Shown: positions 3,626 to 63,823, counted from the stretch's first letter. The stretch is DNA of 64,000 nt from an uncultured Actinomycetota bacterium (GCA_963754255.1 CAVWEW010000011.1:34638-98637); one strand, 5' to 3'. The notes: generated by a model from the sequence alone, not told the origin. A program made the numbers and translations.

Positions 3626-4330
3626 ATGAACCTCGGCATCCGGCACTCGATCATCCCCACCGTCCTCGACCAGACGAGTCGGGGCGACAGGGCATACGAC
3701 ATCTTCTCGCTTCTGTTGCGGGAGCGAATCGTCTTCCTCGGCCAGGAGGTCGACGACCAGATCGCCAACCTCCTCGTCGCCGAGATCCTCTACCTCGAAG
3801 CCGAGGACCCGGAGAAGGACATCCACCTCTACATCAACTCCCCTGGCGGGCTCGGTTATGCGGGCATGGCGATCTACGACGTGATGCAGCACACCCGTTG
3901 CGAGGTGTCGACGATCTGCGTCGGCATGGGCATGTCGGCGGCGGCCATGATCCTCGCCGGCGGGGCGGCCGGGAAGCGCTTCGCCCTGCCGAACGCCAAG
4001 ATCATGATCCACGAGGGCAGCGCCGGCACGAGAGGGGCACCCCGGGACATGGAGATCCATCTCCGGGAGGTGCTCGCCACGACGAGGAGGATGGTCGACA
4101 TCCTCGCTCACCACACCGGCCGGAGCACCGAGGAGGTGGGCCGCGACATCGAGCGGGACCGATACATGACCGCCGAGGAGGCCAAGGACTACGGCCTCAT
4201 CGACGAGATAATCATGCCCCGCCGAGGCGTCTCGGCCACCCATCTCGAGCTGGCCGTCACCGGCTCGTCGATGGAGGCATCGGTGGCGGCTGCAGTCGCG
4301 GCGGCTCCCCTCACCCACAGCGGTACTTGA
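3626..4330 (+). CDS. clpP: ATP-dependent Clp protease proteolytic subunit, active-site intact, with a ~40-aa C-terminal extension
   Basis: 234-aa ORF: TSRGDRAYDIFSLLLRERIVFLGQEVDDQIANLLVAEILYLEAEDPEKDIHLYINSPGG. The catalytic Ser is in VGMGMSAAAM, the His in KIMIHEGS and the Asp in DIERDRYM. An AGGAAG RBS lies about 10 nt upstream. Confidence 0.85.
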   Translation: MNLGIRHSIIPTVLDQTSRGDRAYDIFSLLLRERIVFLGQEVDDQIANLLVAEILYLEAEDPEKDIHLYINSPGGLGYAGMAIYDVMQHTRCEVSTICVGMGMSAAAMILAGGAAGKRFALPNAKIMIHEGSAGTRGAPRDMEIHLREVLATTRRMVDILAHHTGRSTEEVGRDIERDRYMTAEEAKDYGLIDEIIMPRRGVSATHLELAVTGSSMEASVAAAVAAAPLTHSGT

Positions 4331-4509
4331 TCGCTCCGAAGGGAAATGTCTCGAGCACACCAAAGGCGTCTTTCGACCGCCTGACCCGAGGGGGCCGAGC
4401 CTCTCGGGCCGGCCTGCAAGCATTCCCGGCCGGCAGCACTAACCTTGTTCCGTGCTCGTCTGATCTCCGCCGCCGTGCTCTGTCCACCTGCGTCCCTCCG
4501 GAGATCCCC

Positions 4510-21540: not shown

Positions 21541-22638
21541 TTAGCTCGAGCCCCACTCCCAGGTGTCACTCAGCAACTGGTTCTGCCAGTAGTCATAGCC
21601 GCCGAACAGGAATACGGTGCCGGTGGCCGAGTCGTACGCCATCGCCGCGCCCTCCCGGGCCGCCGGGCGGTTCGCCGGGGCCTGTTTGGTCCAGGTGGAC
21701 CCGTCCCAGGTCTCGGTACCGCGTAGCGGGTAGTTGCCGCTCTGGCCGCCGAACAGGACGACGGTGCCGGTGGCCGCGTCGTAGGCTGCCGACCCGCCCT
21801 CGCGGCCGGCTGGGCGGTTTGCGGGCGCCTGCTTGGTCCAGCTGGTTCCGTTCCAGGTCCAGGTGTCACCGAATATGCGGCCTTGGGGGGCATTCGAGCC
21901 GCCGAACAGGACGACGGTGCCAGTGGCCGCGTCGTAGGCCGTCGACGCGCCCTGACGAGCGGACGGGCTGATCGGAGGGGCCTGCTTGGTCCACGTGGTT
22001 CCATTCCAGGTCCAGGTGTCGGCGAACCAGCGGTATCCGTTCGTGCCACCGAAGAGGACCACGGTGCCAGTGGCCACGTCGTAGGCCATCGACGCGTACC
22101 CCCGCGCCGCCGGGCTTGTCGCAGGGGCCTGCTTGGTCCAGGTGGTTCCGTTCCAGGTCCAGGTGTCGCCGAACCAGCGATAGCCGCCGAACAGGACGAC
22201 GGTGCCGGTGGACGCGTCGTAGGCCATCGACGCGCCCGATCGGGCAGGTGGGCTCGTCGTCGGCGCCTGCTTGGTCCAAGTGGATCCGTTCCAGGTCCAG
22301 GTGTCGCCGACACCCTGGCCGTTGACATCGCCGCCGAACAGGACCGCGGTGCCGGTGGCCGTGTCGTAGGCCATCGACACGTACCCCCGCGCCGGCGGGC
22401 TGGTCGCAGGGGCCTGCTTCGTCCAGTTCAGAATTGAGGAGGGACTGGCGAGAGCGGGTGACTGCGAGACGCCAGGAACGCCGAAGGCCAGCAAACAAGC
22501 GGCACCCGCGGCAAGCGAGCAGGCCCGGTCGCGCCAGCGGCGGCGGCCACGAGCTTCGGCGCGATGAACCCGGTCCTGCTGCCCGACGAGCCGTGCACTA
22601 CCGCGTGCAGCGGTGATCAACCTTCGGCTGATGCGCAT
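21541..22638 (-). CDS. Secreted six-bladed Kelch-repeat (galactose-oxidase-like beta-propeller) protein
   Basis: Signal-like N-terminus, then six units of about 46-51 aa: WTKQAP..SP.AR.GASMAYD.ATGTVVLFGG....GDTWTWNGT. Confidence 0.8.
   Translation of the reverse strand: MRISRRLITAARGSARLVGQQDRVHRAEARGRRRWRDRACSLAAGAACLLAFGVPGVSQSPALASPSSILNWTKQAPATSPPARGYVSMAYDTATGTAVLFGGDVNGQGVGDTWTWNGSTWTKQAPTTSPPARSGASMAYDASTGTVVLFGGYRWFGDTWTWNGTTWTKQAPATSPAARGYASMAYDVATGTVVLFGGTNGYRWFADTWTWNGTTWTKQAPPISPSARQGASTAYDAATGTVVLFGGSNAPQGRIFGDTWTWNGTSWTKQAPANRPAGREGGSAAYDAATGTVVLFGGQSGNYPLRGTETWDGSTWTKQAPANRPAAREGAAMAYDSATGTVFLFGGYDYWQNQLLSDTWEWGSS
21560..22420. repeat. Six tandem ~138-153-bp coding repeats (the Kelch blades) with high nucleotide identity
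   Basis: Recurrent strings are visible in the DNA, such as ggtgccggtggccgcgtcgtaggc, ccgccgaacaggacgac and ctgcttggtccaggtgg(a/t)tccgttccaggtccaggtgtc. Confidence 0.7.
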
Positions 22639-50880: not shown

Positions 50881-50966
50881 GGAGGGATGCGAGAGTGGCC
50901 GAATCGGGCGGTCTCGAAAACCGTTGTGTCTTATGGGCACCGTGGGTTCGAATCCCACTCCCTCCC
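50881..50966 (+). tRNA. tRNA-Ser (anticodon CGA)
   Basis: Folded by hand. The acceptor stem GGAGGGA/TCCCTCC pairs. The anticodon stem GCGGT/ACCGT carries loop CTCGAAA (anticodon CGA). There is a long variable arm (TGTGTCTTATGGGCAC). The T-arm is GTGGG-TTCGAAT-CCCAC. No CCA is encoded. Confidence 0.85.
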
Positions 50967-51959: not shown

Positions 51960-53620
51960 TCAAGCTGGCGGACCGGCGGCCAGCGTGACCGTCACGGTGT
52001 GAAGCTGCCCAGAGGAGTCGTCGAAGCCGACGGTGACTCGGTCACCGGCATGGTGGCTGTTCATCAGGCTCGAGAGCCCACTCGGCGAACCGACTGCTTG
52101 GCCGTCGAGAGAGACGATCACGTCACCAGCGACCAGCCCGGCCGACGCAGCGGGGGACCCGGGGATGGCCGCCGCGATGACAGCGCCGGAGACAGAGCCG
52201 CCCGCACCTGCCCCGCTTGCCTGGACCTCGACGCCGAGCATCGCCGCGGTGCCGATGTGGACCGTAGACGAGCCCTGCCCGCTCTCGATCTGGGAGGCGA
52301 TGTTGAGCGCCGTCGAGATCGGGATGGCGAAGGCCTGGCTCTGGTTGCTAGACGTGGACTGGAACTGGCTACCGGACGATGCAGCCGTGTCGATAGCCAG
52401 CACTTGACCCGACTTGTTCACGAGCGGTCCGCCGGAGTCGCCCGCCTGAATCGGGGCGTCGGTCTCGATCAGGCCGCTCAGGTGCTCAGAGTTTGCGCCG
52501 GAATCGTCCGTGGCCGTGATGGACTGGTGGAGGGCGACGACCGCTCCGGCCGCCGTGCTCGGGGTGCCGCCGGCGCCGCCGGCGTTGCCGATGGCGAGGA
52601 CCGCCAGCCCGGTGTGGACGCTCGAACTGGAGCCGATTCGGGCGGTGGTGAGGCCGGAGGCGTTCTGCAGTTGGAGAACGGCGATGTCCTGAGTGGCGTC
52701 CGTACCGACAACCCTGGCGGAGTAGGTGCGGCCGTTGCCGACGTCGGTGACCCTGATGCTCGTCGCCCCGTCGACGACGTGGTTGTTCGTCAGGACCTCA
52801 CCGTTCGATGTCAGCACAATGCCGGTGCCGGCAGCGCTTGCCTCCTCATATCCGAGGACGACGTTCACGTCCACGAGGGCTGGATCGACCTTGGCGGCGA
52901 CCGCCGAGGCGTTGATCGAGCCACCTCCGGCTCCGACCCCCGTCGATGCTCCTGAGCCGGTCGAGCCGGTCGAGCCGGTCGAACCGCCGACGCCACCAAA
53001 GGTGCCACCGAGGCCGCCAAAGCCGAACGAGCCACCAGGACCTGACGACCCGGGCGAGAGCGACGATCCCCCGGACGACGCGCCCCCTCGAGACGCTGCG
53101 CTCGTGTTGGAGCTACCTGCCGACAGGCGCCCGACCGCCGCACCGCCCCCGGCGAAGCCTGCCAGCAGGGCGACGAGCAGCAGGCCGTTACGGAACCGGC
53201 GTCGTTTCTTGGCCGGAGATGCCGGCGCCTGGGTGTGACCCGGATAGAAGGCCTGAGGCGCTGTGGCATAGGCGCCCCAGGGCTCTCCGGCACCAGGGCC
53301 GGGCTGGCCGTACGGCGACGAGACCGGCGGCTGCCAGTAGGGATTCGAGTCATGGCCGGCGGCTGCCAATAGCCCCCGGCAGGCGAAGCGGGCCAGTGGG
53401 GACCGCCGGAGGGAGGGCCCGTAGGGGCAGCGGGCTCATACGGCCGCTCGGAAGGCGGTCCGCTTGCAGAAGCGGGCTCGTGGGGACCGCCGGACGGCGG
53501 GTCACTCTGGTTCGCCGATGACTCAGGCGCCGGTGAAGCGCCGGCCCCGTAAGGAACCCAGTTCGGCCGGGGTGCCTGATCATCTCGCTCGTTGGGGAGA
53601 GGGTTCTCTGGGAAGTTCAT
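51960..53620 (-). pseudogene. HtrA/DegP-like trypsin-fold serine protease with PDZ domain and a Pro-rich cytoplasmic N-terminus; frame broken near 53335-53365
   Basis: ORF 51960..53369 has a TM helix (LLLVALLAGFAGG), a Gly/Ser linker, TNNHVV, DIAVLQL, GDSGGPLV and a PDZ-like tail. MNFPENPLPNERDDQAPRPNWVPYG...GGYWQPPA (from ATG 53620) lies in another frame and joins ..GHDSNPYWQPPVSSPYGQP. Confidence 0.8.
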
Positions 53621-60526: not shown

Positions 60527-62437
60527 TCAGTGCTTCAGCCCGAGCCGGTGGCGGCGGTGCGGGCGCGGGCTGCGGAGGGTGCCCCCCGGATGGCTCACGG
60601 TTGTGCCCTTGATGCGCTCGAGATGAGTCATGCCGGTGCCGAGGTCCTTCAGAGCAAGCCCGATCGCGGTGTTGACGAGTGAGACGTGGGAGAACGCTTG
60701 GGGAAAGTTGCCCACGAGCCTGCCGGCGACCGGGTCGTACTCCTCTGACAGCAGGCCCAGGTCGTTGCGGAGCGACAACAGCTTCTCGAAGAGGGTCTCG
60801 GCCTCGTCGGTCCGCCCGATCAGATGGAGGTCGTCTGCCATCCAGAACGAGCAGGCGAGAAAGGCGCCCTCCCTGCCGGAGAGCCCGTCCACGTGCTCGG
60901 AACGCTGCGAGTCGTACCGCATGACAAACCCGTCGACGGTGAGCTCTTGCTGGATCGCCTCCACGGTCCCGATCACGCGGGGATCCTGAGCAGGCAAGAA
61001 ACCCACCAGAGGGATCATCAACACACTCGCGTCGAGCTCCTTCGAGCCGTAGTACTGGGTGAAGGTGTTGCGTTCCCGGTCGTAGCCCTTCTCGAGCACC
61101 TCGGTGTGGATCTCGTCCCGGAGCGCCTTCCACTTGTCGGTCGGTCCGTCCAGGCCGAAGCCTTCGATATCACTCAAGACGCTGTTCACTGCGTTCCAGG
61201 CCATCACTTTTGAATGGGTGAAGTGGCGGCGGGGTCCCCGCACCTCCCAGATGCCGTCGTCGGGCTCCTTCCAGCCGGACTCGAGGAAATCCATGATGGC
61301 CACTTCCATGTCCCAGGCGGGATCGGCCGACTGAATCCCGGTCCGGCGTGCCTCGTGGAGAGCGCCGAGTACCTCGCCGTAGACGTCGAGCTGGTACTGG
61401 CCGGAGGCGGCGTTGCCTACCCGGACAGGCGCCGATCCCTCGTAGCCGGGCAGCCACGGGATCTCCCGCTCGAGCAGGTTCCTCTCGCCGGCCGGCCCGT
61501 ACATGATCTGCAGCTTGGACGGTTCGCCGGCGACGGCTCGCAGCAGCCAGTCCCGCCAGGCAGACGCCTCGTCGTAGTAGCCGCACGCCATGAGGGCCGA
61601 GAGCGTGAGGGTGGCGTCCCGCAGCCACGAGAAGCGGTAGTCCCAGTTCCGGGAGCCCCCGAGCGCCTCGGGGAGCGACGTCGTGGCGGCGGCGATGATC
61701 CCGCCTGTCGGCTGGAAGGTGAGCGCCTTCAAGGTTATGAGGGAGCGCACGACCGGGTCCTGCCAGCTCCCGAGGTCGACGTGCTCCATCTCCGCCCACT
61801 GCTGCCAGAATTGGGCCGTGTGGTCGACCGCGTAGCCGCCGTCGATCGGTCGGGGCACATCGTCTGTCGAGGCGAAGTAGCTGAGGACGAAGGGCACGCG
61901 GTTGCCCTCGCGGAGCGTGAACTCGGCGACTGTGCTCATGTCCCTGCCGTGGGTGTGCACGGGAGACCAGAGCGCCAATCCGTCGGGACCGGCCACGGCT
62001 GACAGGACTCCGTCCTGTCGCCGGACCCACGGGATGGCAGAGCCGTACTCCAGGCGGATGGTGAGGTCCATCCGCATCGCCACGGCGCCCCTGGTGCATT
62101 CGACCATCCGGACGATCTGCGGATGCACCTGACGGATCGGCATGCAGTCGGTGAGCTTGACGGTGCCCTCGGGCAGGTCCCACTCCGTCTCGAGGACGAG
62201 CGAGTTCTCGACGTACCGGCGGCGGGTGGCGAGCAGCGGCTCCCCCTTCCCCGGAGGAGGGCTTGCCTGTGGGGCGATGCGCCACAGGCCGTGCTCGGGG
62301 CGGCCGAGAAGGTTGGCGAAGACGGACGACGAGTCGAAGCGGGGCAGGCACAGCCAGTCGATCGAACCGTCGCGCCCGACGAGGGCAGCGGTCTGGGTAT
62401 CCCCGATCAGGCCGTAGTCCTCGATGCGCAGAGCCAC
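60527..62437 (-). CDS. Glycoside hydrolase family 15 (glucoamylase/trehalase-type)
   Basis: MALRIEDYGLIGDTQTAALVGRDGSIDWLCLPRFDSSSVFANLLG, ..SLPE..GGSRNWDYRFSWLRDA.. and ..FLACSFWMAD.. are typical of bacterial GH15. Confidence 0.85.
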   Translation of the reverse strand: MALRIEDYGLIGDTQTAALVGRDGSIDWLCLPRFDSSSVFANLLGRPEHGLWRIAPQASPPPGKGEPLLATRRRYVENSLVLETEWDLPEGTVKLTDCMPIRQVHPQIVRMVECTRGAVAMRMDLTIRLEYGSAIPWVRRQDGVLSAVAGPDGLALWSPVHTHGRDMSTVAEFTLREGNRVPFVLSYFASTDDVPRPIDGGYAVDHTAQFWQQWAEMEHVDLGSWQDPVVRSLITLKALTFQPTGGIIAAATTSLPEALGGSRNWDYRFSWLRDATLTLSALMACGYYDEASAWRDWLLRAVAGEPSKLQIMYGPAGERNLLEREIPWLPGYEGSAPVRVGNAASGQYQLDVYGEVLGALHEARRTGIQSADPAWDMEVAIMDFLESGWKEPDDGIWEVRGPRRHFTHSKVMAWNAVNSVLSDIEGFGLDGPTDKWKALRDEIHTEVLEKGYDRERNTFTQYYGSKELDASVLMIPLVGFLPAQDPRVIGTVEAIQQELTVDGFVMRYDSQRSEHVDGLSGREGAFLACSFWMADDLHLIGRTDEAETLFEKLLSLRNDLGLLSEEYDPVAGRLVGNFPQAFSHVSLVNTAIGLALKDLGTGMTHLERIKGTTVSHPGGTLRSPRPHRRHRLGLKH

Positions 62438-62539
62438 AGCGCCATCATGGCCGATCGCTGTCGGGACATGCAGCCAACGCGGCTCAGGGCCTCAGGACAT
62501 GCGGTCATCGGCGGGTCGCCGGCGGGGGATTCAGTCGGC

Positions 62540-62671
62540 GGATCAGCTGTCGGTGCGGGCGCCGGTCGGGGCGGATCAGCTCGTGGTGCAGGCGCCGGTC
62601 GAGGCGGATCAGCTGTCGGTGCAGGCGCCGGTCGAGGCGGATCAGCTGTCGGTGCAGGCGCCGGTCGAGGC
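62540..62671. repeat. Four head-to-tail copies of a 33-bp unit (ggatcagctgtcggtgcaggcgccggtcgaggc)
   Basis: Counted by hand. Copies lie at 62540-62572, 62573-62605, 62606-62638 and 62639-62671. Copies 3 and 4 are identical. Copy 2 has a 4-nt block changed (gtcg to tcgt). Copy 1 has 2 substitutions. A more degenerate partial copy may precede at about 62507-62539. Copy 4 contains the last 9 codons and the TGA of marP. Confidence 0.9.
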
Positions 62672-63823
62672 GATCGAACCGGCCGGTCGCCTCTCCGCGA
62701 GCAGGACGCGTGCGCGCACACCGGGAGACGCGAGTGCGAAGCCGATCCGGTTCTCGTTGGCGGCCCGGGAGAAGACGATCCCGATCACCGTGCCGCCCGA
62801 TTCGACGAGCGGGCCACCGGAGTTGCCCGGGCGCACCAGAGACCGGATCTCGTAGATCTGGCGCTGGACGCTCGTCGTGCCGTAGATGTTCGTCGACACG
62901 GGGTCGAAGCGCATGAGAACCCCCGCCGGCTGAGGGTCGAGGAAGGTCTCGCCCCCCGGATAGCCGAGCACCGTCGCCTTCGTGCCCCGGCTCACGTATC
63001 CCGGGTCGAGCCGGAGTGGCGGCTCGGGGACGTTCGCCCGGAGGACGGCGAGGTCGAAGTTCGGGTCGAAGAAGACGGGGGTGGCAGCCACGGACCGGAC
63101 ACCGCCGTAGTCGACGGAGATCTGGCTCGTGCCGGCGATCACGTGAGCGTTCGTCACAACGAGGTGCGGTGCGACGACGAAGCCCGACCCTTCCTGGACG
63201 ACGCCGACGCAGCCCCCGGCGACGATCCGCACCGTCGAAGGTCCGTCCGCGAGAACGGCGGCGCGAACGGCCGGGGCTTTCGGCAGCGGCACGGGGCCGG
63301 TGGACGGCAGGATGCCCAAGTAGCCGAACGAGAAGCCGTCGTCGTTGAGCTGCCGCTCCACCGTCGCCAGCTCGTTAGGCAGGCCGGGCATGACGTCGGT
63401 GACGGCGTGGAGCACGGCGGAGTCCTCTATCTGGCGCGAGACCTGCCCGACCTGGCTCTGGGCCAGCATCGAGGCCAGCAACCACACCACGACGAGAGCA
63501 CCGGTCATGGCGACGACAGCGCCCGTCGCCGAGTCGACGGCGGCAATGGCGTGGCCGTGCAGCCGGCGCCAGATTCGGGTGCCGATCTGCCGACCGGCGC
63601 CCCAGAGCAGGCTGGTAGGCACGAGGAGGCACAGCAGGGCCACGAAGGTCCTCGTGAAGGGATCGTGCAGATGCGGCAACACCTGTGAGATGAGAGCTAT
63701 GCCGAGCGCCGCCCCGACGATGGCTCCGGCAAAAGAGAGCACCTGCACCGCCGCACCGAGGCGCACCCCGTGCACAGCTGCCAGCACGACGACGATGATT
63801 ATGATGACGTCGAGCGCGTCCAT
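62642..63823 (-). CDS. marP: MarP-type membrane-anchored serine protease (CvpA-like 4-TM N-terminus + chymotrypsin-fold domain)
   Basis: N-terminal hydrophobic helices (MDALDVIIIIVVVLAAVHG..., FAGAIVGAALGIALI, FVALLCLLVP, AVVAMTGALVVVWLLA). The protease part is VVTNAHVI (His), FDLAVLR (Asp) and RPGNSGGPLV (Ser). A Cys close to the C-terminus (STGACTDS) matches mycobacterial MarP/Rv3671c. Confidence 0.75.
   Translation of the reverse strand: MDALDVIIIIVVVLAAVHGVRLGAAVQVLSFAGAIVGAALGIALISQVLPHLHDPFTRTFVALLCLLVPTSLLWGAGRQIGTRIWRRLHGHAIAAVDSATGAVVAMTGALVVVWLLASMLAQSQVGQVSRQIEDSAVLHAVTDVMPGLPNELATVERQLNDDGFSFGYLGILPSTGPVPLPKAPAVRAAVLADGPSTVRIVAGGCVGVVQEGSGFVVAPHLVVTNAHVIAGTSQISVDYGGVRSVAATPVFFDPNFDLAVLRANVPEPPLRLDPGYVSRGTKATVLGYPGGETFLDPQPAGVLMRFDPVSTNIYGTTSVQRQIYEIRSLVRPGNSGGPLVESGGTVIGIVFSRAANENRIGFALASPGVRARVLLAERRPAGSIASTGACTDS

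Follow-up and report, generated by a model that had tools for sequence, protein, structure and literature searches.

Introduction

Tandem repeats in prokaryotes are enriched just downstream of stop codons, and arrays in which old and new units are mixed have been described (PMC12418385). MIRUs are intergenic tandem direct repeats of 40–100 bp that are oriented with their flanking genes, carry small open reading frames, occupy 41 loci in M. tuberculosis, and are apparently mobile; they insert at start codons, where the internal ORF is coupled to the downstream gene by a -4 overlap (PMC5056196; PMC12548453). Intergenic VNTRs or minisatellites of bacteria, of the kind used for MLVA typing, are head-to-tail direct repeats with a unit of 10–100 bp that arise by slipped-strand mispairing. 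MarP of M. tuberculosis (Rv3671c) joins a four-helix Colicin_V membrane domain to a chymotrypsin-fold protease domain and ends 2–4 residues after a cysteine in a TG.C motif; in mycobacterial MarP, this C-terminal Cys is disulfide-bonded with a Cys near position 214 (PMC4992679).

Here we analyze a 33-bp tandem array at the end of a marP gene in a 64,000-nt stretch of DNA (the window) from an uncultured Actinomycetota bacterium. Like MIRUs, the array is an actinobacterial intergenic tandem direct repeat that is co-oriented with its flanking genes, carries frame-aware stops, and lies between genes of a likely operon. Unlike MIRUs, its unit is only 33 bp, occupies a single locus in the 64-kb window and none in representative genomes, derives from the end of the gene upstream, and leaves 103 nt before the start codon downstream. 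Like VNTRs, the array consists of head-to-tail units of 10–100 bp in an intergenic spacer, differs in copy number between lineages (1, about 2, and 4 here), sets identical young units beside diverged old ones, and has microhomology at its boundaries; unlike them, its unit straddles a stop codon, with each copy holding C-terminal codons plus a stop, and its polymorphism is between species-level relatives. The host gene shares both domains and the C-terminal TG.C motif with Rv3671c but is an Acidimicrobiales orthologue of putative function, and mycobacterial marP has no 3'-end repeat described in the literature that we retrieved.

Results

The array repeats the end of a MarP-family gene

Tandem Repeats Finder called one array at 62537-62672, with a period of 33, 4.1 copies, 94% matches, and a score of 242. 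A search for the unit with up to three mismatches found exactly four adjoining sites, at 62540-62671, where 0 were expected from 100 dinucleotide shuffles, and on both strands of the 64-kb window these four 33-mers were the only ones with at least 24/33 identity to the unit (Table 1). Both searches therefore confirmed the initial annotation in its count of four head-to-tail units, two of them identical. The same annotation had allowed for a degenerate fifth copy at 62507-62539, which we discard: this segment matches the unit at 9/33 positions in register, compared to a window-wide mean of 9.5, and its likeness to the unit is confined to the 13 nt GCCGACTGAATCC. These 13 nt supply the GCC of the GATCCGCC junction and look like old downstream flank, a reading based upon the homologous GGCGACTGCATC in a sister-species contig (L001).

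Table 1. Features of the marP–GH15 region, in window coordinates. Copies are numbered from the marP end.
Feature	Coordinates	Strand	Mismatches to unit	Remarks
GH15-family glycoside hydrolase, trehalase-like, 636 aa, GTG start	60527..62437	-		Pfam Glyco_hydro_15 and TREH_N
CGATCGGCCATGATGGCGCT, motif directly upstream of the GH15 GTG	62438..62457	-		left intact by the array
Two-copy direct repeat, distal spacer	62461..62510	-		19-nt cores, 79% identity, 31-nt spacing
GCCGACTGAATCC	62527..62539	-		old downstream flank or 13-nt unit stub; in-frame TGA 62531-62533
Copy 4, distal	62540..62572	-	2	both differences T->C (Ser->Pro, Cys->Arg); in-frame TGA 62543-62545
Copy 3	62573..62605	-	3	differences in a single codon, GAC->ACG (Asp->Thr); in-frame TGA 62576-62578
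Copy 2	62606..62638	-	0	0/33 differences to copy 1; in-frame TGA 62609-62611
Copy 1, master copy	62639..62671	-	0	last 9 marP codons, TGA, and TCC; GCCTCGACCGGCGCCTGCACCGACAGCTGATCC = ASTGACTDS*S
GATC/GCC, 5' boundary of copy 1	62669..62675	-		read from the sequence
marP, MarP-family membrane serine protease, 393 aa	62642..63823	-		ends ...GSIASTGACTDS; TGA 62642-62644

Read on the minus strand in the marP frame, the region gives ...GSIASTGACTDS*SASTGACTDS*SASTGACTTS*SAPTGARTDS*SAD*, with TGA codons beginning at 62642, 62609, 62576, 62543, and 62531. Each unit had been annotated as encoding the marP C-terminal peptide with its cysteine, and this description needs amending in that the variants are A(S/P)TGA(C/R)T(D/T)S, with Arg in place of Cys in copy 4. 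Similarly, the palindromes GATC, CAGCTG, and GGCGCC had been ascribed to every unit, which stands except that CAGCTG is lost from copy 3. All five of the differences among array copies (5/5) change an amino acid, including the Cys->Arg change.

The identity of the host gene is well supported. Its product contains the Pfam domains Colicin_V (PF02674) and Trypsin_2 (PF13365), scores 303.9 bits against the NCBIfam model NF033740 (MarP family serine protease; cut-off 250) over residues 4-391, and has the catalytic His/Asp/Ser motifs TNAHV, FDLAVL, and GNSGGP. It aligns to the Rv3671c structure 3k6z through the C-terminal TGAC, with TGAC paired with TGAC and vaggC paired with laprC, so that the partner Cys is also present here. 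As annotated, the unit thus duplicates the end of a genuine MarP-family gene, from the ninth-last codon through the stop and three bases beyond it. Among the best 120 MarP homologues, the C-terminal Cys is conserved in 120/120, and all end 2–4 residues after it; for this reason we take the first TGA to be the native marP stop, with which the alignment to Rv3671c agrees, and the earlier statement that the first copy met by the ribosome ends MarP holds. Those homologues that carry a name come from uncultured Acidimicrobiales, and the array belongs to a lineage of soil Acidimicrobiales.

Downstream, the product of the GH15 gene scores 376 bits against the TreH1 model, which is under the equivalog cut-off. 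The core of the motif that precedes this gene, GCCATGATG, is conserved in all relatives examined, at MarP identities as low as 54%, and GCCATGATGGCGCC stands directly before the GH15 GTG across relatives (the motif can also be written (C)CATCGGCCATGATGGCGCC). Several features of this motif can be read from its sequence. The segment cATGAT, at -12 to -7 of the GTG, would suit a leaderless transcript as its -10 box; another possibility is that ATGATG begins a short ORF, upstream and in the +1 frame, which in one relative (L008) reads ATG ATG TTG CGG TGA and overlaps the GTG as GTGA; and GCCATgATGGC is a small palindrome. The two cores of the distal-spacer repeat, TCGGGACATGCAGCCAACG and TCAGGACATGCGGTCATCG, may reflect an older duplication layer or chance, and two-copy repeat families of such size (19-nt cores) can arise by chance.

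The marP and GH15 genes share one reading frame both in the window (62438-62644) and in L001 (4180-4305). In L001, the MarP frame runs on to the start of GH15 with a single TGA as its sole stop, and read-through would therefore fuse the MarP and GH15 proteins; the window has six in-frame stops in the corresponding interval.

Other tandem repeats occur elsewhere in the window. A repeat with a 42-nt period at 53385-53501 (2.8 copies, 68% matches) contains G+C-rich cores that resemble hairpins (GGGGACCGCCGGA.GGCGGG), lies in an apparent ~400-nt stretch between convincing ORFs, and has no Rfam match at the gathering threshold. A long tandem repeat at 21595-22426, with periods of 147, 285, and 300 nt (2–6 copies, 75–84% matches), probably reflects a protein domain repeated inside a coding sequence.

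Copy number and spacer length differ among relatives

We compared the marP–GH15 locus across 16 other contigs, of which L005 and L014 break off before the GH15 gene would come into view. In all contigs that extend beyond the marP stop, marP and GH15 lie side by side in the same orientation, and this holds even for MarP identities of 54–60%. The spacer from the marP stop to the GH15 start measures 14 nt in L008, 39–40 nt in L006, L007, and L010, 48–76 nt in L003, L004, and L009, 55 nt in L002, 123 nt in L001 (with one decayed extra copy), 150 nt in L011 and, identically, in L015-L018 (five independent assemblies, with decayed copies), and 204 nt in the window. In a neighbor-joining tree of marP DNA, the window pairs with L001 (89% identity) and L011 pairs with L002 (93%). 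Copy number at this one locus, compared here among species-level relatives, is 1 in L002, L003, and L004, 1 plus a decayed copy in L001, and 4 in the window. The array is absent from relatives that have 84–88% identical MarP, the same gene pair, and the same pre-GH15 motif, and these single-copy relatives encode a homologous STGxCxDG* at the marP end.

Within L001, copy 1 is followed by one decayed copy, which carries a ~14-nt internal insertion and a 1-nt deletion, is frame-shifted, and has lost its stop. The 5' half of this decayed copy (GTCCCCGCCCGGCGCCCGC) has both of the T->C changes found in copy 4 of the window. To look beyond this pair, we aligned every spacer with the marP 3' end from its own locus and scored the match against 500 dinucleotide shuffles. 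The match was significant for L001 (score 40, p=0.002), L011 (score 25, p=0.004), and L009 (score 21, p=0.008), marginal for the distal spacer of the window (p=0.045), and not significant for L003 and L004 (scores 15 and 14, p about 0.13); L006, L007, and L010, at 59–60% identity, showed none (score 10, p 0.70–0.84). These matches suggest that some spacers hold older copies of the marP end.

In the L011 spacer (4183-4332), several decayed copies of that locus's own marP end can be discerned as GCACCGACGGCTGAG-like motifs spaced 32–38 nt apart, and CCACGGGCGT occurs twice. The L002 spacer (4183-4237) reads like that of L011 minus ~95 nt between GCACCG repeats. Contraction thus apparently also occurs, with the L002 spacer representing the state after a deletion between these repeats.

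The array is probably a slippage minisatellite

We read the array as a lineage-specific minisatellite, a VNTR-type tandem duplication in the marP–GH15 spacer that is near-neutral, and assign this reading a probability of roughly 0.8. First, the copies are tandem at a level above chance, copy number varies at the locus, and the unit is local in origin. Second, the GATC/GCC at the 5' boundary and the GATCC/GCC at the unit junctions form a short direct repeat 33–34 nt apart, and the single-copy ancestor therefore would have had short direct repeats ~33 nt apart. Such repeats at this distance are a classic substrate for slippage. We infer that the 33-bp segment (the last nine marP codons, the TGA, and three bases) was duplicated by replication slippage or unequal recombination between GATCGCC and GATCCGCC, which would have stood ~33 nt apart around the stop. 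Third, because copy 4 and the decayed copy of L001 share derived changes, two copies were already in place before the window lineage and L001 diverged. The window lineage later gained two more copies beside the gene, of which copy 2 is the youngest duplicate because it is identical to copy 1. Together, the identity of copies 1 and 2 and the changes shared by copy 4 and the L001 copy indicate that new copies arise beside the gene and old ones decay, with the distal copy 4 being the oldest by this comparison.

Selection on the MarP C-terminus, with its predicted disulfide Cys, would keep the in-gene copy from changing, and the downstream copies, predicted to be untranslated, would be free to decay. 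The extra copies indeed appear to be without constraint, as all of their differences change amino acids and the L001 copy has indels and has lost its stop. The MarP protein is unchanged by the array, as the first stop is the native one and translation ends there. What can be demonstrated is limited to a spacer of 204 nt, compared to 14–76 nt in repeat-free relatives, and four extra in-frame stops, and from the lack of conservation and of signals we judge the array to be selectively neutral or nearly so. The initial annotation had proposed that slippage between in-frame copies would be silent for the protein. This proposal is right for the identical copies 1 and 2 but not for recombination with copies 3 or 4, as contraction via either of these copies could bring Cys->Arg, Ser->Pro, or Asp->Thr into marP.

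Alternative readings of the array

Phased protein-binding sites, with the 33-bp spacing corresponding to about three helical turns, could in principle control GH15 or processing of the marP 3' end. The position of the array would suit such a role, as it lies 103–234 nt before the GTG at 62437, in agreement with the distance first annotated; so would the short palindromes in the units, a junction, CCGACAGCTGATCCGCC, that is weakly like CCGACAGCGATCGGCC just before the pre-GH15 motif (score 21, p=0.045), and the recurrence of marP-end copies in the spacers of several lineages. However, L002, L003, L004, and L006-L010 keep both the gene pair and the motif and lack the array, the extra copy in L001 has decayed by indels, and CAGCTG is already gone from copy 3. 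Moreover, any 33-bp period is phased automatically, the palindromes are G+C-rich and 4–6 bp long in a window whose G+C content is 67%, and there is no promoter-like site nearby. The marginal junction match is the only hint of the phased array that the initial annotation had offered, and with relatives that have the same genes and motif doing without it, we consider this role quite unlikely.

The recurrence of copies bears on a broader idea as well, namely that the marP–GH15 spacer is a recurrent and possibly selected conveyor belt of duplicated marP ends kept for a function. Such duplicated ends occur in two or more sub-lineages and differ in sequence between them, which could reflect a hotspot or selection instead of pure chance. 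On this model, the duplications in the window/L001 lineage and in L011-type lineages would be independent, and the traces in L009, L003, and L004 would be remnants of the same process. The function served might be, for example, the spacing or uncoupling of marP and the trehalase-like gene, the provision of repeated binding sites, or a set of fail-safe stops that prevent a MarP–GH15 read-through fusion. We regard upkeep for any such function as quite improbable.

Could the array instead be an artefact of assembly, either an over-expanded copy or a longer array collapsed to four units? The window is part of a metagenome-assembled genome, there is no difference between copies 1 and 2, and collapse of repeats is a recognized error of short-read assembly (PMC12418385). 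The locus also seems to break assemblies. A same-species contig from another sample, L014 (Logan SRR30413545, 1649 nt, 98% identical marP), stops at the first unit, ending ...CAGCTGATC, one base before the end of unit 1. This break falls ~3 nt from the prediction of a simple k=31 unitig model and suggests, in the sense of being consistent with, a repeat-induced assembly break at an array that is also present there. Three observations speak against an artefact. Copies 3 and 4 have distinct substitutions, which assemblers do not invent; the longest exact repeat is <100 nt and can be spanned by ordinary reads and large k-mers; and the independent assembly of the sister species (L001, JGI 3300054962) shows, at this very site, a decayed copy with the copy-4 changes. 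This last observation also upholds a local repeat, and an artefactual origin is very unlikely.

An RNA element, such as a terminator or attenuator, a stability element, or a modulator of GH15 translation, would find a plausible setting between two genes of like orientation whose synteny extends across the family, and the CAGCUG sequences of neighboring units can self-pair. The predicted folds nevertheless gave no sign of structure. Minimum free energies were no better than those of dinucleotide shuffles, with z-scores of +0.86 for the 276-nt region, -0.05 for the 135-nt array, and -0.45 for the opposite strand, and folds of one unit, two units, the array on both strands, and the spacer all stayed at shuffle level (z -0.87 to +0.86). 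A scan of the region for terminators and promoters, which requires a -35 box and therefore misses actinobacterial -10-only promoters, returned 0 sites, and there was neither an intrinsic terminator nor, in 0 matches at E<=1, any Rfam family in the region. In addition, the array is not conserved in relatives. The RNA structural element that had been suggested for the marP 3' UTR can thus be set aside as highly improbable. In a scan of the whole window at the Rfam gathering threshold, the only RNA gene detected was a tRNA-Ser (anticodon CGA) at 50881-50966.

That the extra copies are translated, by TGA read-through, frameshifting, or phase-variable recombination, to give variants of the MarP C-terminus is extremely improbable. 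Every copy keeps the marP frame, a ribosome reading through the first TGA would append xSASTGACTDS, an alternative frame is open across the array (PRPAPAPTADP, ORF 62407-62721), and recombination with copy 4 would replace the predicted disulfide Cys with Arg. Yet 120/120 homologues stop at the same position, the differences between copies bear no mark of purifying selection, the L001 copy is frame-shifted with its stop lost, a G+C content of 67% makes open frames expected, and the region yielded neither a recoding signal nor a structure. The 104-aa ORF of PRPAPAPTADP repeats and the antisense ORFs over the array were rejected as spurious, being expected at 67% G+C and interrupted by indels in L001.

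Finally, insertion of a mobile or dispersed MIRU, REP, or MITE-type repeat at the marP stop, for which the MIRU-like tandem, intergenic, and co-oriented arrangement with frame-aware stops might argue, is scarcely credible, given that the unit is marP's own 3' end with a homologous STGxCxDG* in single-copy relatives, is shorter than the MIRU range of 40–100 bp, lacks terminal inverted repeats and a REP-like hairpin, and stops 103 nt before the downstream start without abutting or overlapping it. Dispersal through the genome, which the initial annotation had named as grounds for refuting its reading, was not seen: no further copy was found in the 64-kb window, and a degenerate unit pattern had 0 matches in 185,579 species-representative genomes (GTDB); a 24-nt marP-end pattern also had 0 matches in metagenome contigs, a collection that likewise misses the pattern-bearing L001 contig. 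MIRU-like size, dispersal, and an internal ORF coupled to the downstream start were not seen, nor were the inverted repeats within units, folding beyond shuffle level, or dispersal of REP or MITE elements.

Discussion

The array is an ordinary kind of feature, although this particular array is undescribed. Annotating it as a gene, an RNA, or a mobile element would be wrong. As a marker it could help to tell strains apart in this uncultured Acidimicrobiales population, and it may break short-k assemblies, as the Logan contig that ends one base short of the end of unit 1 illustrates.

More generally, the array fits the reported enrichment of repeats downstream of stop codons and illustrates current understanding rather than changing it. 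It provides a small and clean example of intergenic DNA born from the end of a gene, in which a duplication that straddles the stop codon spares the protein. The in-gene copy would be fixed by selection, and the copies downstream would drift, decay, and sometimes be deleted. In some lineages, the spacer has been stretched from 14–76 nt to 123–204 nt. From these comparisons, it seems that the marP–GH15 spacer in this clade grew as the end of marP was copied again and again, and that it was at times shortened.
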